Source of the DNA: Minisyncoccota bacterium
GTDB lineage: Bacteria > Patescibacteriota > Minisyncoccia > Phycocordibacterales > UBA2100
Length of the DNA: 64,000 bases
NCBI GenBank assembly: GCA_965267345.1
Contig: OZ253947.1
Location: 72,662-136,661, forward strand
Reading direction: 5' to 3'
Of this stretch, positions 3,405 through 39,090 are shown piece by piece. The number at the start of each line of letters is the position of its first letter. Positions within the stretch are counted from its first letter, which is position 1. The notes beneath the pieces were generated by a model that did no database searches, was not told the DNA's origin, and saw only the letters and a program-made list of their open reading frames with translations. The position numbers and the translations under genes are program-made.

Positions 3405-3561
3405 TGCTGTACCTCCAGAGTCCAGCGGTTGATCTGCGATGAGTATAGTCCGGAAATGCACGTACGCAAACCTGCCCCACCTTCCTTCCCGCGTAAGGGC
3501 GGTCCTCGTGCACAAGGACCGCCCTTGTATAGTGTTGGTGTAGTATAAAACCACACAATGT

Positions 3562-3590
3562 ATAAAAGCTCGGCTTAAACCGAGCTTTAT
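3562..3590 (-). terminator. terminator hairpin downstream of tmRNA (aaagctcgg...ccgagcttt followed by TTTTAT on the minus strand)
   Basis: 9 bp stem plus U-tract immediately 3' of the tmRNA end. Confidence 0.6.
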
Positions 3591-3596
3591 AACGTG

Positions 3597-3984
3597 TGGA
3601 GGTGGGGGAGACGAATCCCCGTCCATGAGAATCTCCATATATACGTCTACGAAATCTAGTCCATTTTCTGAGTTTAAACACGATGTGTTTGAAATGGACA
3701 AAATCACATCATGTCGATCCCCATCGATTTAAAAGCAGTGGTGAGGAAACCACGTCTTCGAGTCCGAAAGTGTGACACCGCTATTTTCAATATCGGACGT
3801 CATGAGAAGCGATGGTCGCTTAGGCTACTGCGTAAGCGAAGCCGAAATCCTTTGCCTGAATTGGGCTTAGAATTCCGCGTGCAGTTTTAGATGCACCTAT
3901 TGGGTTGAGAAGTTGATACGGCAGTCTTCTCACTGCCATTTCGCATATATACCGAGCATTCACTGTCGAAACATAGTCACCCCC
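3597..3984 (-). ncRNA. ssrA: tmRNA (SsrA)
   Basis: Minus strand starts GGGGGTGACTATGTTTCGACAG and ends GGACGGGGATTCGTCTCCCCCACCTCCA. The 7 bp acceptor stem (GGGGGTG / CACCTCC) has a G3-U70 wobble, the alanine identity element. T-arm-like 3' end. Internal frame GCA AAG GAT TTC GGC TTC GCT TAC GCA GTA GCC TAA is a candidate tag (AKDFGFAYAVA). Directly adjacent to smpB. Confidence 0.8.
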
Positions 3985-4598: not shown

Positions 4599-6599
4599 AT
4601 GGATAGGAACAAAACCACTGTCAACCTGCAGGCACGCAAACAGTCGGGCAAGCAGGCACCAAAAAAGAAAGGTCAGAAGAAGCGCGCGAAGGGGCCGCTT
4701 GGTGATATGCCGCATATGCCCGAGAACAACTTTTGGATGCAAATGGCCATCACGTTTGTGGTGTTTTTGCTGTTGCTCTCTGGCTACACAACGGTTGTCA
4801 ATCTTTTTGAAGAAAAAAATGAAATTTCACTCACACAACTCACGAGTGATATTAACGCCGGTTTAGTCAGTAGCATTGATGTCAGCGGCAACACCATTGA
4901 AGCAACGTATCCGGCACCCGAAGAGGGCACTGAGCCAATCGTCAAAGAGTCACAGAAAGAAACCGAAAGCTCACTTACTGAAACATTAACGAATTACGGT
5001 GTTAGCCCTGAGGCGCTGACCGCGGTAAATCTCACTATCAGCGATCCGAGCGGTTTTCGCTACTGGTTTATAACCCTGGCGCCGCTCTTGCTCCCGCTGA
5101 TTATTATTATCGCGATCATTTGGTATCTGTCGCGACAGGTGCGTGGTGCAGGTGTGCAGGCATTCTCATTTGGACAGAGCAAGGCACGCATTATTGACCC
5201 GAGCGACACCAAGCAGCGCGTGGTTTTCGACGATGTGGCGGGTGCTAAAGAGGCAAAAGAGGAACTGTACGAAATTGTTGACTTCCTCAAGAATCCGAAA
5301 AAGTTTATTCAAATTGGGGCGCGTATTCCGAAAGGTGTGATGCTGATGGGTGCGCCCGGCACCGGAAAGACGCTCTTGGCCCGCGCCGTCGCGGGTGAAG
5401 CGAATGTGCCGTTCTTCATTATTTCCGGTTCTGAATTTGTCGAGATGTTCGTTGGTGTTGGTGCGAGCCGCGTGCGCGATTTGTTCAAGATGGCAAAGAA
5501 GGTTGCGCCGGCCATCGTCTTTATTGATGAAATTGATGCGGTCGGACGGGTGCGTGGCACCGGTGTCGGCGGCGGTAACGACGAGCGCGAACAAACACTC
5601 AACCAGATTCTCGTTGAGATGGACGGGTTTGAGCCGAATGAAAAAGTAATCGTTATGGCGGCAACGAACCGTCCCGACGTACTCGATCCGGCGCTGCTGC
5701 GTCCGGGGCGTTTCGACCGTCGCGTTACGATCGACCTGCCCGATCGCGACGACCGCGAGAGTATTCTGAAAATTCATGCACGCAAAAAGCCGATGGGCGA
5801 GGATGTGAACTTGCGCGTCATTGCCGAGCGTACACCCGGATTCTCCGGTGCCGACCTCTCAAACTTAATGAACGAAGCCGCTATCTTGGCAGCACGCGAA
5901 GATCGCAAGGAAATCACGCAGTATGACCTCATACGTTCGATCGAGAAAGTGATGCTCGGCCCTGAGCGTAAGAGCCACGTATTGAATAAGCGCGAAAAGG
6001 AAATTACTGCCTACCATGAGGGTGGGCACGCACTGGTGGCGTCGATACTCCCATACGCTGATCCTGTACACAAAATATCGGTCATCAGCCGTGGCCGCGC
6101 TGCCGGCTACACGCTTAAGTTGCCGTTTGAGGATCGCAAGATGCAGTCGAAGCGTGAATTCCTCGACGACATTGCCGTGTCACTCGGTGGCTACGTTGCC
6201 GAAAAAATGATCTTTGATGACGTCACCACCGGCCCGTCGAACGACCTGCAGGTGCTGACGAACATCGCTCGCAACATGGTGACCCGCTGGGGTATGTCAG
6301 AGAAATTAGGCACCGTTGCACTTGCCGGCGACGATGGCAAAACACTCTACGGCAGCGGTGTGTATGGCCGCGAGTACTCGGAGAAAGTGTCGGCTGATAT
6401 TGATGCTGAGGTGAAAGCGATCATTAACGACGCCTACAAACGTGCCGAAGATATTCTCACGAAGCACCGTGGCGCACTGGACGCGATTGCTGCACGCCTG
6501 ATTGAAGTGGAAACACTTGAACGCGATGACTTTGAGGACCTGCTGCGCGAGCACAACATCACCCCCAAAAAGAAAGAAGACATTGAACATCAGAGCTAA
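4599..6599 (+). CDS. ftsH: ATP-dependent zinc metalloprotease FtsH
   Basis: AAA Walker A motif GAPGTGKT, second region of homology, HEGGH zinc motif, N-terminal TM segments. Confidence 0.95.
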
Positions 6600-6605
6600 T
6601 GACCT

Positions 6606-7643
6606 ATGGGTATCGAGAGTGCAGAAGGAGGGCGACGTATCGACACGTTTGCGCCTAAGGTCGTTCTCCATACTGAAGAGCCGCTCTTAGATGCGTCTAT
6701 CGAATTGCTGGTTACCGGTACGCCGCATACCGATGAGTTAGACGCTGCGCTCATGCACGCTGGCGGCGATGAACCAAAGTTCGTGTCGCGCATTGAACGT
6801 GCACGTCCATCCATTGAGCAATTCATCGCACGCATTGAAGCGCGCTTTGAAAAAGGTCGCGGATATCGTGCCGGTATTCGTGATGCATTGCGCTTCATGC
6901 TCAAACTGCACGCCGATCAAGGTGATCGCTATGATTCCGGTGAGCCATTTGTGACACATCCACTCGCAGTTGCTACCGATACGCTGCGTATGATGGGGAA
7001 ACGCGAGGACGCATGGCATGCGTGTATTGCGGCACTGTTGCATGACAGTGTCGAAGATCACGCGCGATGGATTAAACTTGAACGCCAACTTTTGTTAGAT
7101 GATTCGGAGGAGAGCCATGTGCCCTATGAGATTCCTCAGGAAGAAGAAACTGAGGAAGAACAGAGGCAGCGTATCAAAAAGCGTGAGCGCGCAGAAGCAC
7201 TCGCTGGTTTGCAGGCACTCTTCGATGCACGTATACGATATTTGGTAAACCGAGTGAGTACGCCGCTCAAAGAAGCAGAATACGAGAACCTGTCACAGAA
7301 TGAAAAAAATGCGATCTACACGCGTTTCATTGAAAAGATTTTTGCTGAGGAGGATGGCGATGTCGTGCCTGCAGTCATTAAATGGGCTGATTTGAAACAA
7401 AATGCACTGACTATTGGGCACATTCGCGAACGCGCGCGCCTCCTGCGCGAGCAGGGTGCGGATAACAAGGCGGAGGAGCTTGAGCGTTTCTATGAAAAAG
7501 TAAAGGTTAAGTATGCACCCGCGCTTGAGGTAGTACGGCAGTTTTTCGTCGAACTCACGAATGGAGAGCACCCACTGTTTGCAGAAAAAGAACGGGCACT
7601 TACAGACCTAAGAGCAGTGCTTACCAAAGAGTACGACGCTTGA
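6606..7643 (+). CDS. HD-domain protein, RelA/SpoT-type (p)ppGpp hydrolase-like
   Basis: FVTHPLAVA...ALLHDSVED matches the HD motif of the RelA/SpoT hydrolase domain; C-terminal charged/coiled region. Confidence 0.65.
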   Translation: MGIESAEGGRRIDTFAPKVVLHTEEPLLDASIELLVTGTPHTDELDAALMHAGGDEPKFVSRIERARPSIEQFIARIEARFEKGRGYRAGIRDALRFMLKLHADQGDRYDSGEPFVTHPLAVATDTLRMMGKREDAWHACIAALLHDSVEDHARWIKLERQLLLDDSEESHVPYEIPQEEETEEEQRQRIKKRERAEALAGLQALFDARIRYLVNRVSTPLKEAEYENLSQNEKNAIYTRFIEKIFAEEDGDVVPAVIKWADLKQNALTIGHIRERARLLREQGADNKAEELERFYEKVKVKYAPALEVVRQFFVELTNGEHPLFAEKERALTDLRAVLTKEYDA

Positions 7644-8231: not shown

Positions 8232-9689
8232 ATGGAACGGCGACGCTTGTTCGTAACTATTCTTATGCTCGTGCTCTTTGTAAGTGCGGGCGCCCCGTTC
8301 GTGGCACGCGCGGCAACTGCTGAGGAACTGCGTGCACAAATTGCCGATATTCTCGCCGAAATCAACTACCTGCGCACGCAGCTCAATGCCGTGAGTGCGG
8401 GGCAGCAGGCGGGTACGACAACCGCCGAGCAACCGAGCTACACGGTTGGCTCAGCACGCGCGTCACAGGCGGCTACCTTTCAATACAGTCGCTGTCCTGA
8501 CCTGCAGTTCGACCTTGAGCGCGGTGATGTGAATGCAGATGTTGCCGAAGAGGTAAGTATGCTCCAGCGGTTTCTGTCGCAAGACTCCAGCATCTATCCT
8601 GAAGGAGAAATAACGGGGTACTTCGGGCCGGCAACCGAGCGTGCGGTGCAGCGTTTTCAGGAACGTCACGGCATTGTCGCACGAGGTGACTACCAGTCGA
8701 CGGGCTACGGCCGCGTCGGTCCGCGCACCCGATGGGCAATCAAAAACTCGTGCGACTCATCGCTGGCACCACAAAGCCAAGCACCCACATCACCCGACCC
8801 ACTCGACGAATTTGTGGTGACGAGTACATCAGGGTCGAGTTCACGCACCACGTATGCACCGGTCGGCGGTGTGCAGACGAGCGGCGGTCCCTCAACGTGC
8901 TTTGTGCAACCCGACCGCGGTACGGCGCCTCTGACCGTACGCGCCCGACTACTCCTTGGCGGCTCACTGTGTGACGGCGATCTCACCTACCAAATTGATT
9001 GGGGTGATGGCTCCACGTCCTCGCCGCGTGTGTGTAGCGACACGAATCAACACTACGAACAGCTAACGCACACCTACCTTGTGCCCGCCGTATACCCCGC
9101 ACGTCTTATACAGTCACATCCGAATGCACAGTTTGCCGACCGCTCATGTTCGGTCACGGTAGCAGCGGTTCCCGAATCCAATGACGGCACCATTACCGGC
9201 CAGTGTCGCAGCTGGACGGACGGGTGTAACACATGCTCACGCGACTATGAAAACGGTCCCGCGCGCTGTACGGAACGGTACTGCACGCAGTACGGGGCAC
9301 AGCAGTGCTACGAGTATTTCCCCGCATCGGCAGGAGCAACGGGCGACACGCTCCGCGTGCGCGTGATCAGTAAGGCATCGGGCATTATGGAATTCACGGC
9401 ACGCATCAATGTCGCCAACAGCTGCGACGGCGGTGTGTATAAAATTTACTTTGGTGACGGAGAATCATCAGTGCAACCATTGGCTCCGGGTGCGTGTCAG
9501 GCATTTGAGCGCACGGTGCGCCACACGTATGCTAACTCCGGCACTTACTCAGCCTTTCTCGTAAAAGACGACGTCGAAGTTGACCGTATCACTGTGGTTA
9601 TTAGCGACACGACCTCATCGGCAGGACACAGCAACGTCGCGAGTGTCATCGTCGCTATTGAAGAGTTTATTCGTTCACTATTTCGCTAG
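8232..9689 (+). CDS. secreted protein with coiled coil, peptidoglycan-binding domain and PKD-like repeats
   Basis: Signal peptide MERRRLFVTILMLVLFVSAGAPFVARA. PG_binding_1-like segment (RFLSQ...GYFGPATERAVQRFQERHGI). Repeats of the form C..Y.IDWGDGS....HTY...G.Y. Confidence 0.75.
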   Translation: MERRRLFVTILMLVLFVSAGAPFVARAATAEELRAQIADILAEINYLRTQLNAVSAGQQAGTTTAEQPSYTVGSARASQAATFQYSRCPDLQFDLERGDVNADVAEEVSMLQRFLSQDSSIYPEGEITGYFGPATERAVQRFQERHGIVARGDYQSTGYGRVGPRTRWAIKNSCDSSLAPQSQAPTSPDPLDEFVVTSTSGSSSRTTYAPVGGVQTSGGPSTCFVQPDRGTAPLTVRARLLLGGSLCDGDLTYQIDWGDGSTSSPRVCSDTNQHYEQLTHTYLVPAVYPARLIQSHPNAQFADRSCSVTVAAVPESNDGTITGQCRSWTDGCNTCSRDYENGPARCTERYCTQYGAQQCYEYFPASAGATGDTLRVRVISKASGIMEFTARINVANSCDGGVYKIYFGDGESSVQPLAPGACQAFERTVRHTYANSGTYSAFLVKDDVEVDRITVVISDTTSSAGHSNVASVIVAIEEFIRSLFR

Positions 9690-9693
9690 TATG

Positions 9694-11082
9694 TATCGAC
9701 GGGCACAGCTGTTTGTGATGATTGGGTGCGTATTTGCGCTTGGTGCGCTGCCCGTACACGCACAAACGCTTAACACTGACGACATTTTCGCACGCATCAA
9801 TCAATTGCTCGCTCGGGTACAGACACTGCAAGCTGAGCTCAGTGCGCTGCAGGGCAATCAGGCGCAGGGGCCAGTGCAGGGCACCTTCGCCACACCATCA
9901 CCGCACGACACGCCGCGTGTGGAAGTTTGCACACAGACACTCAGCAGCACGCTCGGCTACGGCGATCGCGGCCAGAGTGTTACCGCACTCCAGCAGTATC
10001 TTCGCGGTACGGGCGACTATACCTATCCTGAAATCACCGGGTACTACGGATCGGTAACGCAAGAAGCAGTGCAGCGGTGGCAGGCGCGCCGCGGGATTGT
10101 GGCATCAGGCACACCCGCAACAACCGGCTACGGCCGCGTCGGTCCGCAGACACGCGCGGCAATCAATAGCGACTGCGGTGACATTGTGCGCGATCCTGTA
10201 CTGTCGCGTCCACTTGTGGTGACACCTGAGATCGGACAGGTACCGCTCGACGTCGTGACGACATTCTCTGTTGCCGGTTCATCGTGCGCTTCTTACGCAC
10301 TCGACTGGGGTGACGGAACCCCCGCACTTGCGTTTGATGCAGGCGTTGGCGACACCTGCACGCGTGACATTGCGCACAAACGCGCGACACACACCTATGC
10401 CAATGGCGGAGTGTACCGTGTGACACTCCGTGCCACACAGGGCCCACTCGCAACTGCCGGCCTCGTTGGCGAAACATTCGTATCAGTCGGCGCACCGGCT
10501 CCTGGCGGTATTTCACTGTCACCAACGTCGGGACTCACACCATTTACCACAAGCGTGACCTTTCCCGTGCAAGGGTCGCAGTGTACCTCGTATCGGGTGA
10601 ATTGGGACGACGGGGTGCGCGATGAGTACGAGGCAACCAGTACCGTTTGCAATGCAAAGACGGGCACACAAGCTGTCTCGCACACCTATACTAATCCCGG
10701 AACGTACAACGTGACGTTGCAGGTTGGCCAAGCACCACTGAGCGCACTGCCGGTGCAGCAGGAGTGGGAAGTTGTGGTCAACGACGGACGCGTCGGGAGT
10801 GCGGGCGTTGATGTCGCACCAACGCGCGGCACGGCGCCGCTTGATGTTTCCGTGCGCATTTACGGCGAAGGAAAGGCATGCCAGTCATACGGCGTGCAGT
10901 GGGGCGACGGGAGTGACGGCGAGTACTACGATGCCGGCACCACGCCATGCAATGACACATACTTTAACTACACGCTACGCCACACGTACACACAAGCAGG
11001 GCGCTACCTGCTGTCAGTGGCGACCGGACGCGACGCACTCGGCAACCTCACGTCGGTGCCATACGTCGTGGTCGTTGAGTAA
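9694..11082 (+). CDS. paralogous secreted protein with coiled coil, peptidoglycan-binding domain and four PKD-like repeats
   Basis: Same architecture as the upstream gene (YALDWGDGTPA..., YRVNWDDGVRD..., YGVQWGDGSDGE... each followed by HTYxxxGxY). Starts 5 nt after the previous stop. Confidence 0.75.
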   Translation, partial: YRRAQLFVMIGCVFALGALPVHAQTLNTDDIFARINQLLARVQTLQAELSALQGNQAQGPVQGTFATPSPHDTPRVEVCTQTLSSTLGYGDRGQSVTALQQYLRGTGDYTYPEITGYYGSVTQEAVQRWQARRGIVASGTPATTGYGRVGPQTRAAINSDCGDIVRDPVLSRPLVVTPEIGQVPLDVVTTFSVAGSSCASYALDWGDGTPALAFDAGVGDTCTRDIAHKRATHTYANGGVYRVTLRATQGPLATAGLVGETFVSVGAPAPGGISLSPTSGLTPFTTSVTFPVQGSQCTSYRVNWDDGVRDEYEATSTVCNAKTGTQAVSHTYTNPGTYNVTLQVGQAPLSALPVQQEWEVVVNDGRVGSAGVDVAPTRGTAPLDVSVRIYGEGKACQSYGVQWGDGSDGEYYDAGTTPCNDTYFNYTLRHTYTQAGRYLLSVATGRDALGNLTSVPYVVVVE

Positions 11083-11083
11083 G

Positions 11084-13222
11084 CTACTCCATGTGTAGCG
11101 TTGCGGCGCGCTGTGCAACGCGATGCAGTAGCGCGGGATACGCCACAAGCGAGGCGTCCGTCTCGATGATGCGCGTTGCGTCAGTGCGCGCCGCTTCAAC
11201 CATTTTTAGATTCTGCAGTGCTTGCATGCCCATGTCAGAGATACCCCACTGTGAGCTTCCCGCAAGCTCGCCCGGCCCGCGCAGTTTCAAGTCTTCCTCG
11301 GCGAGTGCAAAGCCGTCGGCGGCCTGTTCAAGTGCACGCAAGCGGGTGAGCGACGTATCATTTTTTGACTCTGAAAATAAATAGCAGTACGGTTGATGGT
11401 GTGAGCGTTGGACGCGTCCGCGCAGCTGGTGCAGCTGTGAGAGGCCGAATCGCTCAGCGCCTTCAATGATAATGATCGTTGCATTTGGTACGTTTACACC
11501 CACTTCAATCACCGACGTCGCCACGAGTACGTCAACCGCGCCGTCGGCAAAGCGCTGCATTGCAGCGTCTTTTTCTTGCGGGGTCATCTTTCCGTGCAGT
11601 GTGCCGACGACATAGTCTTTAAATGGCCCCTTTTGCAGACGCGCCGCCTCGGCGGTGACCGATTTTGCGCGGAGGGCGAGTGCCTTTGTCGGGTCAGGTT
11701 CGTCGATACGCGGGCAGATCACGTACGCCTGCCGGCCGCTGTGCAGTTCGCTGCGCACGGCGGCGTATACCTCGTCGCGCTTTGACGGCGCAACGACCTT
11801 TGTGTGTATTGGTTTGCGTCCCGCCGGCCGCTCATCGAGCAGTGAAATGTCCAAGTCGCCGTAGATAGTTAGGGCGAGTGTGCGCGGAATGGGAGTGGCC
11901 GTCATCGACAGTAGATGCGGCGCCGAGTCGTCTTTGTGCGCCAGTGCCTTGCGCTGCTGGGTACCAAAGCGATGCTGCTCGTCAATAATGACGTACGAGA
12001 GATTTTTAAAGGTTACCGTCTTCTGTATCAGTGCGTGGGTGCCGACAATGACGGGGATTTCACCATTGGCAACCCATTTGAGGAGCTGCGCCCGTGATAT
12101 TTTTGTCGGCTTTTCCGGATGTACTTTTGACGGGAATTTTTGACACCCGCTGGACGTAATCAGGGCAATAGGGATCGGGGCACGTTGGAAATGCTCAATG
12201 AGCGACTCGAACTGCTGTTTCGCAAGAATTTCCGTCGGCACCATGTATGCGACTTGCGCGTAGGCATGCTGTTTTCCCGCGAGCGTACCCCGTGCGACGG
12301 CGCAGAGTGTTGCTGCCGCGACCGTTGTTTTCCCCGAGCCAACGTCACCTTCAAGCAGGCGCGACATCGGGTACGGCTTTTCCAAATCAGCCATAATATG
12401 CTCAATCGCGCGCTGCTGTGCCGTGGTCGGCGTGTACGGCAGTGTCTCCATAAACGATGCCAGTGCGTCGCTGCTGGGGGTGACTGCCGGCGCTTTTAGC
12501 TCACGGGTGTCGTGCCGGCTCTTTTGATGGGCGAGCTGGATGATGAAGACCTCTTCAAATGAAAATCGTTTGCGCGCCGCGGCTTCGTCACGCGAACTCT
12601 GTGGCATGTGGATCCACACGAGGGCGCTGGCAAGTGAGGGGAGCGTGTATCGTGCGCAGACCTCGGCCGGAAGCGCATCTTCCATACGTTCGTGTACTCC
12701 GTCGGCAAGTATTTTGCGCAGAGCATGGTAGAACCACCGGCTCGTGATGCCGCTGCTCTCGGGATAGACGGGAAAGAGTCTTGCTTCGGGGCTCGTATCT
12801 TCGAGCATGTCGGGCAGTCCGGGCATAGCTTCGACGGTGGGGTTGGCGAAATACACACCGCGCGTACCCGTTGCTTTACCCGTGACTTTGACGAAGCGCA
12901 CGTGCTCGAGCATGCGCGCGACGTACGGCTGGTTGAACCACCGCACGCGAATGCTTCCCGTTGCGTCTTTGAGCGTTGCCTCGATAACGTACTTTTTCGT
13001 CCGCCACGAAAGCGTCTTTTTAAAATCAGTCAGTTCGCCATAGACGGTGACCACTTCGTTCGGAACGATGTTGGCAATGTGCGCTGCAGCGCCGACGTCT
13101 TCGTAGCGGTGCGGGAAGTGAAAGAGGAGATCGGCGATGGTGGCGATGTTACGCTTTTCCAGTGCCGCCTGCTGCTGTTTCGTCAGGCGAAAATGTGTCG
13201 TCACTGCGTCCTGTGGGTGCAT
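11084..13222 (-). CDS. recG: ATP-dependent DNA helicase RecG
   Basis: Wedge domain plus SF2 helicase motifs (GDVGSGKT, DEQHRFG); C-terminal end convergent with the PKD gene. Confidence 0.9.
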   Translation of the reverse strand: MHPQDAVTTHFRLTKQQQAALEKRNIATIADLLFHFPHRYEDVGAAAHIANIVPNEVVTVYGELTDFKKTLSWRTKKYVIEATLKDATGSIRVRWFNQPYVARMLEHVRFVKVTGKATGTRGVYFANPTVEAMPGLPDMLEDTSPEARLFPVYPESSGITSRWFYHALRKILADGVHERMEDALPAEVCARYTLPSLASALVWIHMPQSSRDEAAARKRFSFEEVFIIQLAHQKSRHDTRELKAPAVTPSSDALASFMETLPYTPTTAQQRAIEHIMADLEKPYPMSRLLEGDVGSGKTTVAAATLCAVARGTLAGKQHAYAQVAYMVPTEILAKQQFESLIEHFQRAPIPIALITSSGCQKFPSKVHPEKPTKISRAQLLKWVANGEIPVIVGTHALIQKTVTFKNLSYVIIDEQHRFGTQQRKALAHKDDSAPHLLSMTATPIPRTLALTIYGDLDISLLDERPAGRKPIHTKVVAPSKRDEVYAAVRSELHSGRQAYVICPRIDEPDPTKALALRAKSVTAEAARLQKGPFKDYVVGTLHGKMTPQEKDAAMQRFADGAVDVLVATSVIEVGVNVPNATIIIIEGAERFGLSQLHQLRGRVQRSHHQPYCYLFSESKNDTSLTRLRALEQAADGFALAEEDLKLRGPGELAGSSQWGISDMGMQALQNLKMVEAARTDATRIIETDASLVAYPALLHRVAQRAATLHME

Positions 13223-36767: not shown

Positions 36768-36839
36768 AGCGGGGTGGAGGAGTAGTAACTCGCCGGGCTC
36801 ATAACCCGGAGATCGCTGGTGCAATTCCAGCCCCCGCAA
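36768..36839 (+). tRNA. tRNA-fMet (initiator, anticodon CAU)
   Basis: AGCGGGGTGGAGG...CTCATAA...CCAGCCCCCGCAA. Three G:C pairs closing the anticodon stem; 1:72 mismatch; close to E. coli tRNA-fMet. No CCA encoded. Confidence 0.8.
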
Positions 36840-37042
36840 CAAGTACACATAACGCCACACAATTTTGTGTGGCGTTATGTGTTACTGGTGCGCGGGGAGC
36901 AAGGCACCTGCGTGCCTTGCGTCTGGAAGTGCAAGGCGGAGCCATGTCTGAACGAAGTGAAGACGGGCGAGCCCGGACAGGAGCCACTTATCCTGAGTGC
37001 ACGAAGGATTAGTGAGCTGACGTCAATTCCAGCCCCCGCAAC
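36840..37042 (+). repeat. tRNA-fMet-attached element (copy 1): hairpin, conserved core, then a 20 nt copy of the tRNA 3' end (37023-37042)
   Basis: caattccagcccccgcaaca is repeated exactly. Core ...CATGTCTGAACGAAGTGAAGACGGGCGAGCCCGGACAGGAGCCACTTATCCTGAGTGCACGAAGGATTAGTGAGCTGACG is shared with copies 2-4. Confidence 0.65.
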
Positions 37043-37083
37043 ACGTAATGTAAAACACCACGCGACCACGTGGTGTTTTACAT

Positions 37084-37160
37084 TGGTGCCGAGGGACGGG
37101 ATCGAACCGTCGACCTTAGGTTTATGAGTCCTACGCTCTAACCAACTGAGCTACCTCGGC
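37084..37160 (-). tRNA. tRNA-Met (anticodon CAU; elongator Met, or Ile2 if lysidinylated), CCA encoded
   Basis: Reverse complement reads GCCGAGGTAGCTCAGTTGGTTAGAGCGTAGGACTCATAAACCTAAGGTCGACGGTTCGATCCCGTCCCTCGGCACCA. Confidence 0.8.
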
Positions 37161-37318
37161 AATGCACGTATGCGCACAACGATACCAATTTCACGCGCTG
37201 CTTTCAATAAAAATACACTTGTGCACACCATAGTGTCGTGTGCGCAAACAGATACGCCATGAACATGTATACTTGAAGTAGGTCGAGCACATTACTCACT
37301 CCTTACGCATTTTTGTTT

Positions 37319-37528
37319 ATGGCAACACGCAAAACAGCAAAAAAGCGAACGACCGCGAAGCGCAAGCCTGCAGCACGTAAGCGCGTCGCGAAAAAGACAG
37401 CGCGCAAGACGACAGCAAAGAAGCGCACGACCGCGAAGCGCAAACCTGCAGCAAAGAAGAAAACGACTACAAAGCGCAAAGTGGCACGTAAGACGACGTC
37501 ACGCAAGAAAGCAACACGTCGTCGCTAG
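37319..37528 (+). CDS. histone H1-like / HC2-like basic repeat protein (69 aa, K/R/T/A-rich)
   Basis: MATRKTAKKRTTAKRKPAARKR... with internal tandem repeats of TTAKKRTTAKRKPAA (DNA repeat 37340-37465); followed by a terminator. Confidence 0.55.
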   Translation: MATRKTAKKRTTAKRKPAARKRVAKKTARKTTAKKRTTAKRKPAAKKKTTTKRKVARKTTSRKKATRRR

Positions 37529-37546
37529 GACGACGTGTGCTCACGA

Positions 37547-37577
37547 AAAACCCGCTGACAGAGCGGGTTTTTCGTTT
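37547..37577 (+). terminator. rho-independent terminator (aaaaacccgctgacagagcgggtttttcgttt)
   Basis: CCCGCT...AGCGGG stem plus T-run. Confidence 0.7.
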
Positions 37578-37622
37578 GAGAAAGTGGCAACTTTTAAATA
37601 TCCTGTTAGAATAGCGCCTGTT

Positions 37623-37697
37623 GCGGACGTAGCTCAACTTGGTTAGAGCACCCGCCTGTCACGCGGGAGGTTGCGGGTTCAAGTCCCGTCGTTCGCG
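37623..37697 (+). tRNA. tRNA-Asp (anticodon GUC)
   Basis: GCGGACGTAGCTCAACTTGGTTAGAGCACCCGCCTGTCACGCGGGAGGTTGCGGGTTCAAGTCCCGTCGTTCGCG. Confidence 0.9.
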
Positions 37698-37891
37698 CAT
37701 AAACTCAGTGTAGTCCCGACCCGAGAGGGTTGGGGCTTTACTGATTTACAGCGAGGTGGGACTTGAAAGACGGAGCCGGTATACAAGACAAAGCGTAGCG
37801 AAGTGCTTGTCGGCGAGTCCGGGCAGGAGCCACTTATCCTGAGTGCACGAAGGATTAGTGAGCTGACGCCACGTCCCGTCGTTCGCGCATA
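37698..37891 (+). repeat. tRNA-Asp-attached element (copy 2): terminator-like hairpin, conserved core, 19 nt copy of the tRNA 3' end (37873-37891), then a second terminator-like hairpin
   Basis: gtcccgtcgttcgcgcata is repeated exactly. The flanks (cagtgtagtcccgacccgagagggttggggctttactg vs cagttagaccccgtgcggtagcactggggttttactg) are only about 70% identical. Confidence 0.65.
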
Positions 37892-38124
37892 CAACAGTTA
37901 GACCCCGTGCGGTAGCACTGGGGTTTTACTGTTTTAGCGACAAAGTGGGGCGTTTCTCGGTGCACAAAACATGCTACTATACATGCAATGAACATCGCGG
38001 AATTTTTCAATACACTCGTTGCACTTGCCGCGAAAGCCATCACGCTCTTTTTAGAGTTTCTGCTGGCAATTTTTGCCTTTTTCATCACCCTCATCCAAGG
38101 ACTGCTTAGCTTTCTCTCGTAAGT

Positions 38125-38730
38125 ATGTCACATAGTTTTACACGTCAGCAGTGGGTGATTCTCATCTTTTCGCTTAGCTACCTGTGTGCATTCACTGCCT
38201 ACTATCTGGTGAGCGCAAACTACGAATTCCTGTGGTATGTCGCGGTGATGGTATTCTTTTTCGCGCTCCTCATCGGCACACTCCGCTCTTCGCAGTTCAC
38301 GCCGTTGATTTTATGGGGGCTCTCAGTATGGGGACTGCTCCACATGGCTGGAGGCAGCATTCCCGTGGGTGATACGGTCCTGTATGGGGTGCAGCTTATC
38401 GATATCGTCAGTGACGGCGGCGAGTTTGTCATTCTTAAGTACGACCAATTCGTGCACGCATTTGGCTTTGGTGTCACGACACTCGTTGCGTATCACTTGA
38501 TGGCGCCACGCTGGCGTGAGGGTGCATCGCACGGACTACTGCTTGCACTGTGTGTGGCAATTGGTATGGGACTCGGCGCAGTAAACGAAATTGTTGAGTT
38601 TATCGCGGTCGTCGCGATCAGTGAAACGGGCGTGGGCGGATACTTCAATACGTCACTCGACCTCGTCTTCAACGCGCTTGGAGCGCTTGGTGCTGCCGGC
38701 ATACTCGCGTACCGACACAAAGCGAGATAG
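38125..38730 (+). CDS. DUF2238-like (YjdF-like) inner membrane protein
   Basis: 201 aa, 6 TM segments, KYDQFVHAFGFG motif. A 44-codon hydrophobic mini-ORF (37988-38122) precedes it. Confidence 0.55.
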   Translation: MSHSFTRQQWVILIFSLSYLCAFTAYYLVSANYEFLWYVAVMVFFFALLIGTLRSSQFTPLILWGLSVWGLLHMAGGSIPVGDTVLYGVQLIDIVSDGGEFVILKYDQFVHAFGFGVTTLVAYHLMAPRWREGASHGLLLALCVAIGMGLGAVNEIVEFIAVVAISETGVGGYFNTSLDLVFNALGALGAAGILAYRHKAR

Positions 38731-38770
38731 TTTGCGCTCACCACCAAACATTGTAAGATACAGCGCACGT

Positions 38771-38843
38771 GCCGGGATAGCTCAGTTGGTAGAGCGCACC
38801 CATGGTAAGGGTGAGGTCACGGGTTCGAATCCCGTTCCTGGCT
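38771..38843 (+). tRNA. tRNA-Thr (anticodon GGU)
   Basis: GCCGGGATAGCTCAGTTGGTAGAGCGCACCCATGGTAAGGGTGAGGTCACGGGTTCGAATCCCGTTCCTGGCT. Confidence 0.85.
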
Positions 38844-39010
38844 CACGCAGGCGATGAGCCAAGTGAGGAGGAAAGCAGGCACACTGCTTTGCCTGCGTCG
38901 GGATGCGAAAAGCGCAGTCATGTCTGAGCATTGCGAAGACAGACGAGCTCGGGCAGGAGCCACTTAGCGCGTAGCGCTTAGTGAGCTGACGCCGAATCCC
39001 GTTCCTGGCT
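38844..39010 (+). repeat. tRNA-Thr(GGU)-attached element (copy 3): hairpin, conserved core with a variant hairpin (GCGCGTAGCGC), then a 19 nt copy of the tRNA 3' end (38992-39010), abutting the next tRNA
   Basis: cgaatcccgttcctggctc is repeated exactly. Core ...GTCATGTCTGAGCATTGCGAAGACAGACGAGCTCGGGCAGGAGCCACTTAGCGCGTAGCGCTTAGTGAGCTGACG. Confidence 0.65.
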
Positions 39011-39015
39011 CCAGC

Positions 39016-39088
39016 GCCACCGTAGCTCAGTTGGTAGAGCAATACATTCGTAACGTATAGGTCGGAGGTTCGAGTCCTCTCGGTGGCT
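39016..39088 (+). tRNA. tRNA-Thr (anticodon CGU)
   Basis: GCCACCGTAGCTCAGTTGGTAGAGCAATACATTCGTAACGTATAGGTCGGAGGTTCGAGTCCTCTCGGTGGCT. A31-C39 mismatch in the anticodon stem. Confidence 0.8.
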
Positions 39089-39090
39089 CA

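Follow-up and report, generated by a model that had tools for sequence, protein, structure and literature searches.

Integrative elements that target tRNA genes through tyrosine integrases of the T-loop class are laid out as an intact tRNA, the element, and a displaced 3' part of the tRNA that starts in the T-loop, and they may pile up at one gene with cargo in between. Such integrases are reportedly treated in the work of Williams from 2002. Bacterial miniature inverted-repeat transposable elements (MITEs) and the like (Correia/NEMIS, RPE, REP/BIME, PATE) are small, non-coding, multi-copy, strongly folding, co-transcribed and patchy in their occurrence. In the Patescibacteria, group I introns sit in the anticodon loop of tRNA genes, at position 35/36 (PMC13011429). 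In this work, we have analysed a stretch of 64,000 nucleotides from a Minisyncoccota bacterium (assembly GCA_965267345.1, contig OZ253947.1, positions 72,662 to 136,661; called the window hereafter), in which tRNA genes are followed by small elements that carry two copies of the tRNA's own 3' end, one inverted and one direct, on the two sides of a folded core. Homologues of a 215-aa protein that neighbours the elements are found in Kaiserbacteria and related Candidate Phyla Radiation (CPR) genomes, and the host is a Candidatus Kaiserbacteria-like member of the Parcubacteria.

The elements constitute a large undescribed family; full-text searches of the literature gave no description of such elements. 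We give an even chance to the reading that they are a protein-less selfish family of the Parcubacteria/Paceibacteria (CPR), the members of which attach to the 3' ends of tRNA genes, leave the tRNA intact, are co-transcribed with it, and have arms templated by the local tRNA.

From 5' to 3', the unit consists of the intact tRNA, a hairpin (E1), the inverted copy (tRNA positions 74 to 54), a Y-shaped core, the direct copy (positions 57 to 73/74) and the native downstream flank. In some elements a CUGC-loop hairpin (E2) separates the acceptor part of the inverted copy from its T part, so that tRNA-derived and element-specific segments are interleaved in the order 3' end, E1, anti-acceptor, E2, anti-T, core and copy; the presence of E2 tracks the core subtype. 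The elements are about 130–330 bp long and hold no open reading frame (ORF). The tRNA genes were called with ARAGORN and Rfam, and the cores were scored with a covariance model that was built from relatives and run on the window and on 848 kb of syntenic loci. The features in the window are as follows.

36768..36840, plus strand: tRNA-fMet (CAU), whose positions 57-74 (36823-36840) are the upstream member of the repeat
36845..36882, plus strand: fMet E1 hairpin, directly 3' of the tRNA
36888..36933, plus strand: fMet inverted copy (anti-acceptor 36888-36897; E2 hairpin with CUGC loop 36899-36920; anti-T 36922-36933)
36934..37024, plus strand: fMet core of type A1, 88.2 bits with the covariance model
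37025..37042, plus strand: fMet direct copy of positions 57-74, identical to 36823-36840 and followed by a hairpin at 37047-37084
37623..37698, plus strand: tRNA-Asp (GUC), with positions 57-74 at 37681-37698
37706..37767, plus strand: Asp E1 (37706-37743) and contiguous inverted copy GCGAGGTGGGACTTGAA (37751-37767), without E2
37768..37870, plus strand: Asp core of type A1, 84.2 bits
37871..37888, plus strand: Asp direct copy of positions 57-74, with one mismatch to 37681-37698 at tRNA position 58
38771..38844, plus strand: tRNA-Thr (GGU), with positions 57-74 at 38827-38844
38855..38909, plus strand: Thr inverted copy (anti-acceptor 38855-38863; E2 with CUGC loop 38875-38896; anti-T 38897-38909)
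38910..38993, plus strand: Thr core of type A1 with a short P3 hairpin, 86.3 bits
38994..39011, plus strand: Thr direct copy of positions 57-74, identical to 38827-38844 and 4 nt 5' of tRNA-Thr(CGU)
39016..39089, plus strand: tRNA-Thr(CGU), from ARAGORN/Rfam
19694..20148, minus strand: tRNA-Ser(GCU) (20061-20148) and two tandem elements
Minus strand: proximal Ser element of type A2 (anti-T 20005-20017; core 19894-20004; degenerate copy 19875-19893)
Minus strand: distal Ser element, A1-like (anti-T 19856-19870; core 19747-19855; exact copy 19729-19746; terminator 19694-19723)

In the window the covariance model finds five copies, i.e., the three at fMet, Asp and Thr and the two in tandem at tRNA-Ser (40.6 and 35.1 bits), and nothing further above noise. 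Four of the eight window tRNAs carry an element, and the window tRNAs are intact (58.8–68.9 bits with the Rfam tRNA model). The chance expectation of an exact 18-mer inside 400 nt is about 6e-9 per tRNA by our own arithmetic; at tRNA-Ser, 19729-19746 is identical to 20061-20078 of the tRNA on the minus strand. The pattern CAGGAGCCACTTA..TAGTGAGCTGACG has exactly 3 exact matches in the window, as compared with 0 in 100 shuffles, and perfect 7-bp CTGC-loop hairpins occur in the window only in the elements (at 36901 in fMet and at 19960 in the proximal Ser element). In the fMet element, the stem of E1 is prolonged on its outer side by the tRNA 3' end and the inverted copy, so that its arms measure 32 nt, with 84% complementarity, and the anti-T segment is the reverse complement of the T-loop and the 3' strand of the T-stem. 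Its core runs from the joining segment J1/2 (AGGCGGA) through the short hairpin P2 and CGAGCCC to the long hairpin P3, with the end GTGAGCTGACGTC. The Asp core has the P3 of fMet over 45 nt, and its P2 is of the GGTATACAAG type, common to the distal Ser element. That is, by P2 type fMet goes with Thr and Asp goes with Ser, though fMet and Asp share the 45-nt P3, which amounts to mosaicism within one genome.

The original prediction, made from the window alone, had reported exact copies of the last 19–20 nt behind the fMet, Asp and Thr genes and a fourth copy at tRNA-Ser. The copies are real at all four genes, and the one at tRNA-Ser is confirmed by the covariance model as two tandem elements; exactness fails at Asp (position 58), and the repeat corresponds to positions 57 to 73/74. 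The common architecture that it described holds as far as a conserved core followed by the copy is concerned, but the inverted tRNA 3' copy lying 5' of each core had been overlooked. Its drift of the flanks to about 70% identity applies to Asp only, where the hairpin after the copy (37895-37931) is about 65% identical to the Asp E1 (34/52 nt), while the flanks at fMet and Thr are unrelated sequence. Similarly, the selection that it proposed on the copied segment leaves a weak signal at Asp only (P ~0.014, with at most 1 mismatch in 18 against 30–35% divergence of the flank), and copies decay elsewhere.

The sequence of the inverted copy is genuinely that of the tRNA 3' end in reverse complement. 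It holds the reversed T-loop, i.e., ACTTGAA for TTCAAGT, and AATTGCA for the TGCAATT of initiator tRNAs, and it includes the complement of positions 73-74 and often that of the trailer as well. It stops exactly at position 54, its final bases being GAA, or GCA if the T-loop starts with TGC, and these three bases are followed by an invariant A that replaces the complement of G53. At acceptor positions with non-Watson-Crick pairs the inverted copy matches the 3' strand in 5 of 8 cases and the 5' strand in 2 of 8; in both tRNA-Ala genes with G3.U70, it has A opposite U70.

The direct repeat corresponds to positions 57-73/74 in every window copy and in 73 relatives. At position 73 the copy has the base of the gene in 72 of these 73; at position 75 it does so in 43, and at position 76 in 31. 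As C74 is encoded in 96–98% of all tRNA genes of these organisms (368 distinct genes, all loci), identity at position 74 is uninformative. After C74, about two thirds of the 368 genes have A (C-A-N), and the full CCA is present in only ~20%. CCA stands downstream of 19% of the copies, 20% of the element-free genes and 10% of the element-bearing genes. Copying from mature tRNA was considered and rejected, since CCA follows the copies at the background rate. The length of the repeat is 17–18 nt at tRNAs, 43 nt at one non-tRNA site (L106; the L-numbered loci are stretches of relatives compared with the window), and a few nt or none in a short form of the element.

The closing helix, P1, is formed on the tRNA-sense strand by the inverted copy and the direct copy. 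Its register is fixed, with three unpaired nucleotides (GAA or GCA) and then at least 8 pairs, formed in 62–85% of 105 elements. P1 stacks on P3, and thus the transcript, or a single DNA strand, makes a three-way junction with P2. The pairing arms differ at each tRNA, being copied from the local tRNA, and double changes are seen in 7 of the 9 P1 pairs. The two hairpins show covariation of their own. In P2, the triplet before CGGAG changes together with the YY of CGAGYYC (AGG-CC in 46, AGA-TC in 32 and AAG-CT in 8, altogether 86 of 112 elements). At the base of P3 (GGY:RCC), GGC:GCC is found at least 62 times, GGT:ACC 21 times, GGT:GCC with a U.G wobble 8 times and GGC:ACC with C.A once; GAC:GTC also occurs.

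In an alignment of 52 sequences (A4), 96.2% of the cells are paired, as compared with 82.1% for shuffled and 27–37% for slid partners, and 214 cells carry double changes; these sequences were pre-selected for at least 7/8 P1 pairs, so the P1 figures are inflated, and the pairs P3b and P3c (AGC:GCT, CAC:GTG), which were fixed by the search motif and are invariant in the alignment, raise the paired percentage and give no evidence of covariation. P2 and the P3 base, which were not selected for, are 98.7–100% paired and have double changes. In 90 of 103 cores, the plus strand gives the stabler fold of the two strands. This and the excess of U.G over C.A (8 against 1) indicate that the fold belongs to the tRNA-sense strand. 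The folding z-values are -5.3 for the Asp element and -7.8 for the fMet element of the window. In addition, P2 rests on a tandem G.A motif with a one-base bulge, and the apical loops are mainly GNA or GNRA closed by C-G. Overall, the core is a real single-strand structure.

No family of Rfam 15 matches any element type. The search, which had been proposed with the original prediction, was run at the gathering threshold on the window and 11 related loci and at an E-value threshold on two regions, and it gave only tRNA, tmRNA, one FMN riboswitch and chance-level matches; there were no matches to Intron_gpI or group II models up to E 10. Two likenesses were tried by hand and rejected. In a mapping of the three-way junction onto the hammerhead the stem order fits, but the would-be CUGANGA and U-H nucleotides lie in covarying pairs or C-G. 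The likeness of GAGCCGGTATAC to domain V of group II introns comes without the 14-bp bulged hairpin and without an Rfam match.

Beyond the window, we have used two samples. The syntenic sample comprises 85 loci retrieved via the 215-aa protein, in which 25 of 196 tRNAs have a downstream copy of their own 3' end. The place behind the tRNA is also taken by at least three other cores (A2, B, C), likewise between an inverted and a direct copy. An unbiased search of these 848 kb with the covariance model gave 27 matches, nearly all directly 3' of a tRNA. The metagenome census, with the exact 20-nt A1 core motif plus GTGAGCTG as the query, gave 118 stretches with 130 cores. The core, which the original prediction had suggested seeking in relatives, recurs in both samples. 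A same-strand tRNA lies less than 700 nt upstream of 104 of the 130 cores; all 20 amino acids are represented among these tRNAs, with 35 anticodons. In ~60% of the tRNA-linked cores, an exact 12-mer of the local tRNA comes right after the core; the ~40% without it are mostly contig ends or decayed copies. The core variants are shuffled relative to tRNA identity, e.g., one P3 apex is found with His, Ser, Phe, Ile, Leu and Val. No A1 or B core was found in 2.9 million viral contigs, and an exact lookup of the proteins of window genes for strain variants found none on record.

Several observations suggest that the family is selfish and mobile, namely empty orthologous sites, tandem and nested arrays, versions with cargo, and a few insertions away from tRNAs. 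Empty sites, another check that had been put forward, are provided by L001, where none of the 6 tRNAs carries an element, including fMet and Thr. There the fMet gene is followed by a terminator and, after 65 nt, by the next tRNA, and the two Thr genes lie 5 nt apart. The Thr copy of the window stands 4 nt from tRNA-Thr(CGU); as this spacing matches the empty site, it should be the copy, and not the gene's own 3' end, that lies in the ancestral context, and the CCA frequencies are consistent with this. Tandem arrays of whole units occur at L100, L113 and L092, and many single elements resemble one unit plus the start of the next ("1 + epsilon unit"). Elements have piled up at one tRNA at the Ser gene of the window, at L025, where an ORF lies between two elements, and at L010. 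In the last case, a cargo of ~2 kb with genes of inositol monophosphatase and the 2'-5' RNA ligase superfamily lies between tRNA-fMet and a type B element, and an A1 element follows. The short form has few target-derived bases and is also found behind a protein gene (L094), and at L106 a 43-nt hairpin is found twice behind an ORF, with a core in between.

Scanning the cargo and neighbour ORFs (L010 cargo, L025 and L003) with Pfam found no integrase; the matches were inositol monophosphatase, the 2'-5' RNA ligase superfamily, HTH and LAGLIDADG, or there was no family. An enzyme encoded elsewhere in the genome might still act in trans. At L010, two genes of the 2'-5' RNA ligase superfamily (2H phosphoesterase; 8350-9003, plus strand, and 9539-10012, minus strand) flank the element pair, one of them inside the inserted segment. 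The ORF at L025 (11383-11832, plus strand) lies between two nested elements 3' of tRNA-Asp and encodes 149 aa with an HERIH motif and without a Pfam family.

As to expression, promoter-like sites are found only 5' of the tRNAs in the window, and a canonical terminator between tRNA and core is predicted for none of its three copies at fMet, Asp and Thr (at Thr, there is no terminator-like hairpin at all between tRNA-Thr(GGU) and its element); this favours read-through from the tRNA promoter. The elements should then be made as RNA by such read-through. In many relatives, a strong hairpin with a T-run stands before the element.

How could such a family spread? An element would be harmless because the intact tRNA is always kept. 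Integration or amplification might proceed by recombination through the 17-18-nt tRNA-derived segment, for instance of a circular or concatemeric unit, with which the "1 + epsilon unit" layout and the arrays fit. For the arms, we may speculate on two strand switches. Snap-back copying at the E1 hairpin would give the reverse complement back to position 54, and a second switch at the self-folding core would give the 3' end again from position 57; together, the two would rewrite the arms automatically at every new tRNA. A more far-reaching proposal, which we consider possible but rather doubtful, is a self-programming mobile element without proteins: about 20 nt of the neighbouring tRNA gene would be written in twice, as an antisense guide inside and as a sense copy at the end, and the RNA or folded single strand so formed would then direct further recombination or processing at tRNA T-loops. 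The double writing could result from snap-back synthesis or template switching, with two self-folding modules as the sites, or pass through an RNA intermediate.

On the other hand, a number of points weigh against a mobile family with templated arms. Neither an enzyme associated with the elements nor a free or circular form of them was seen; their RNA form is something that we infer, and the rewriting of the arms is a hypothesis. Where tRNA and copy differ, the inverted copy follows the tRNA at 8 positions and the copy at 6, i.e., it has no consistent partner. BLAST among all 204 sequences found no filled/empty pair with at least 80% identity and both flanks, and the exact insertion boundaries are for that reason those we infer. 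The census is biased by its exact core motif (ascertainment bias), as the alignment is by the pre-selection for P1 and by the motif-fixed pairs of P3. Strong conservation of sequence and structure could equally mean a host function. In addition, concerted evolution, i.e., gene conversion of cores among residents, could mimic frequent retargeting. If it acted among old tRNA-specific residents, this would be the main alternative for the matching arms, and it would still need at least 35 retargeting events.

The host function just mentioned could be that of a beneficial cis-acting RNA, a functional 3' extension of the tRNA transcript, which we regard as unlikely. It might be a two-state switch in which the antisense segment has two alternative partners, the 3' half of the real tRNA and the downstream copy, and thereby governs folding, processing or decay of the tRNA; or else it might mimic the acceptor/T-arm and be a substrate of RNase P, RNase Z and the CCA-adding enzyme. 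Such an RNA is in line with the orientation of the elements, which is that of the tRNA, with their lack of an own promoter and, in the window, of a canonical terminator before the core, and with a conserved core whose tandem G.A internal loops are typical of protein-binding RNA; the antisense segment also spans the whole T-loop, including 54-56, and therefore finds a better partner in the real tRNA than in the copy, and the fMet element folds as an acceptor-like stem with arms. However, the occurrence is patchy (4/8 tRNAs in the window, 0/6 at L001, 25/196 at syntenic loci), copies decay, and the hairpin with a T-run before the element in many relatives would limit expression; tandem arrays, different core types nested at one tRNA, cargo genes and insertions behind protein genes also speak against it. 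The guide-like pairing can be taken further, to a small ribozyme or intron-like element at the T-loop, in which the antisense segment is an internal guide over the 56/57 junction and the core catalyses cleavage and ligation or an exchange of the 3' part (cis splicing or trans replacement). The guide is indeed complementary to both sides of this junction, since GAA fits positions 54-56 of the real tRNA and the remainder fits 57-65 of the copy, and a guide that pairs with both sides of a junction follows the P1/P10 logic of group I introns. Three or more unrelated cores (A, B, C) share the guide-core-copy layout, P1 of type B has a conserved 2x2 U.U mismatch (positions 57-58), the L010 cargo includes a gene of the 2'-5' RNA ligase superfamily, and the tRNA genes of this phylum often contain group I introns (PMC13011429). 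We nevertheless think it improbable: there is no Rfam ribozyme or intron match up to E 10, the hand mapping to the hammerhead fails, the core of ~90–110 nt is far smaller than known self-splicing introns, the tRNA is already intact without splicing, and hardly any guide is present in the short form or at the non-tRNA sites.

The direct repeat from the T-loop to the 3' end with a regenerated tRNA also recalls classical attL/attR scars, i.e., miniaturised islands or prophages of tyrosine integrases with the core as a former attP arm, and accretion and cargo between tRNA and copy fit as well. We give this very little credence, and the integrase remnants that the original prediction had listed first among its interpretations are not supported. 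One conserved core serves 35 anticodons with matching arms; compensatory changes are evidence of a single-strand fold and not of duplex protein sites; the inverted target copy lies inside the element, interleaved with element-specific modules; and there is no integrase or other recombinase in the small elements or in the scanned cargo, and none of the 2.9 million viral contigs holds an A1 or B core. Its second interpretation, a non-autonomous family with an unusually long target duplication, survives as a non-coding family at many tRNAs, but the ends of the repeat are set by tRNA positions 57 and 73/74 and not by a fixed length; the third, a co-transcribed RNA whose 3' end repeats part of the tRNA, is plausible, as promoter-like sites are confined to the 5' side of the tRNAs and the three window copies at fMet, Asp and Thr lack a canonical terminator ahead of the core. 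Finally, the unit might be a decayed tandem tRNA duplicate whose second copy took up a core in its T-loop, the "inverted copy" being its 5' acceptor and 5' T-stem strands, which in any tRNA resemble the reverse complement of the 3' strand; 2 of the 8 informative acceptor positions do match the 5' strand. This is highly improbable in view of the reversed T-loop (ACTTGAA, AATTGCA), the included complement of positions 73-74 and often of the trailer, the A opposite U70 in tRNA-Ala where the gene has G3, and the lack of D-arm or anticodon-arm remnants. A second decayed tRNA copy was rejected on the T-loop inversion and the A opposite U70.

Some further observations were made near tRNA genes. Mirror-image elements occur on the 5' side of tRNAs, in the window at 20149-20309 (minus strand) and in relatives at L031 (~6290-6484), L005 (2384-2582), L074, L028 and L078. 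Upstream of tRNA-Ser in the window, at 20292-20309 and 143 nt from the gene, there is an 18-nt copy of the 5' end of this tRNA, with a CUGC-loop hairpin after it. The tRNA-fMet/Met genes of relatives have one or two tandem ~97-nt units upstream, each opening with the first ~25 nt of the tRNA; the 5'-side units of L031, L074 and L028 also hold anticodon-loop sequence and an inverted copy. At L003 (11840-12740; the same at L004), a LAGLIDADG homing-endonuclease gene and a different tRNA-Asp have replaced an older minus-strand tRNA-Asp, of which only the 3' 22 nt are left (~11868-11890), and a second pair of HTH and LAGLIDADG-like ORFs lies just 5' of tRNA-Met (10827-11508). At L072 (~6992-7520), a small ORF that looks GIY-YIG-like by eye (motif YIGYTSDLKKRLKEHQSG) lies between tRNA-Asp and a copy of positions 56-73, without core and without inverted copy, so the same T-loop site would also receive endonuclease genes. 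The tmRNA gene of the window (3594-3984, minus strand) has a palindromic terminator (3540-3600) that reaches the last six bases of the tmRNA (CCACAC...GTGTGG); it resembles the hairpins of the short form, and no core comes after it. Between tRNA-Met and tRNA-Asp of the window, an ORF of ~70 aa (37320-37529, plus strand) is rich in lysine and alanine, has internal 42-nt repeats (KRTTAKRKPAAKK...), is kept in L005 and has no Pfam match.

If the family is mobile, it would be an abundant and overlooked selfish class in the reduced genomes of the CPR, exploiting the most conserved genes and able to use any tRNA. Arms that match the local tRNA point either to an undescribed way of templating or to concerted evolution of unusual efficiency, and since they vary from site to site around a compact conserved scaffold, the elements are a candidate natural guide system. 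Should the self-programming proposal be true, it would mean a new principle of target-templated guide acquisition, outside CRISPR and the flank-derived guides of TnpB; a host RNA would mean a new gene-by-gene mode of tRNA control or mimicry. The family explains many "tRNA fragments" and assembly breaks beside tRNA genes in metagenome assemblies of Parcubacteria, and for Rfam it represents at least one and probably three or four new families.

Compared with known systems, the elements share with the guide-bearing ones (IS110 bridge RNA, the omega/reRNA of IS200/605 TnpB, EBS-IBS of group II introns) a structured RNA, here a presumed one, with a target-complementary stretch, and in TnpB, too, the guide is set automatically by the flank. 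They differ in having no recombinase, nuclease or reverse transcriptase in cis and no Rfam match, and in keeping a guide of ~20 nt inside the element together with a sense copy. With folded single-strand sites (integron attC, the attP of CTX phage used by XerCD) they have in common a strand-specific imperfect inverted repeat that mimics the target duplex, structure over sequence, and arrays; here the target is a tRNA gene, and the core sequence is highly conserved as well. The group I introns of Patescibacteria tRNAs are likewise small structured RNA elements at tRNA genes of the same phylum, mostly without homing endonuclease genes, but they interrupt the tRNA, need splicing and match group I models, whereas the present elements stand behind an intact tRNA and have no intron match. 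MITEs are bounded by constant terminal inverted repeats and duplicate a short stretch of the target, always of one length, whereas here the arms vary with the tRNA and the repeat is bounded by positions 57 and 73/74. The tRNA-targeting integrative elements have one or a few att sites, whereas here one core family serves 35 anticodons, in elements down to ~130 bp without an integrase, with an inverted target copy inside and with a single-strand fold, not duplex sites, as the conserved part. We know of no precedent for inverted and direct arms that both match the tRNA. Overall, the family works most like the tRNA-targeting integrative elements and the MITEs, yet it fails the defining features of both.

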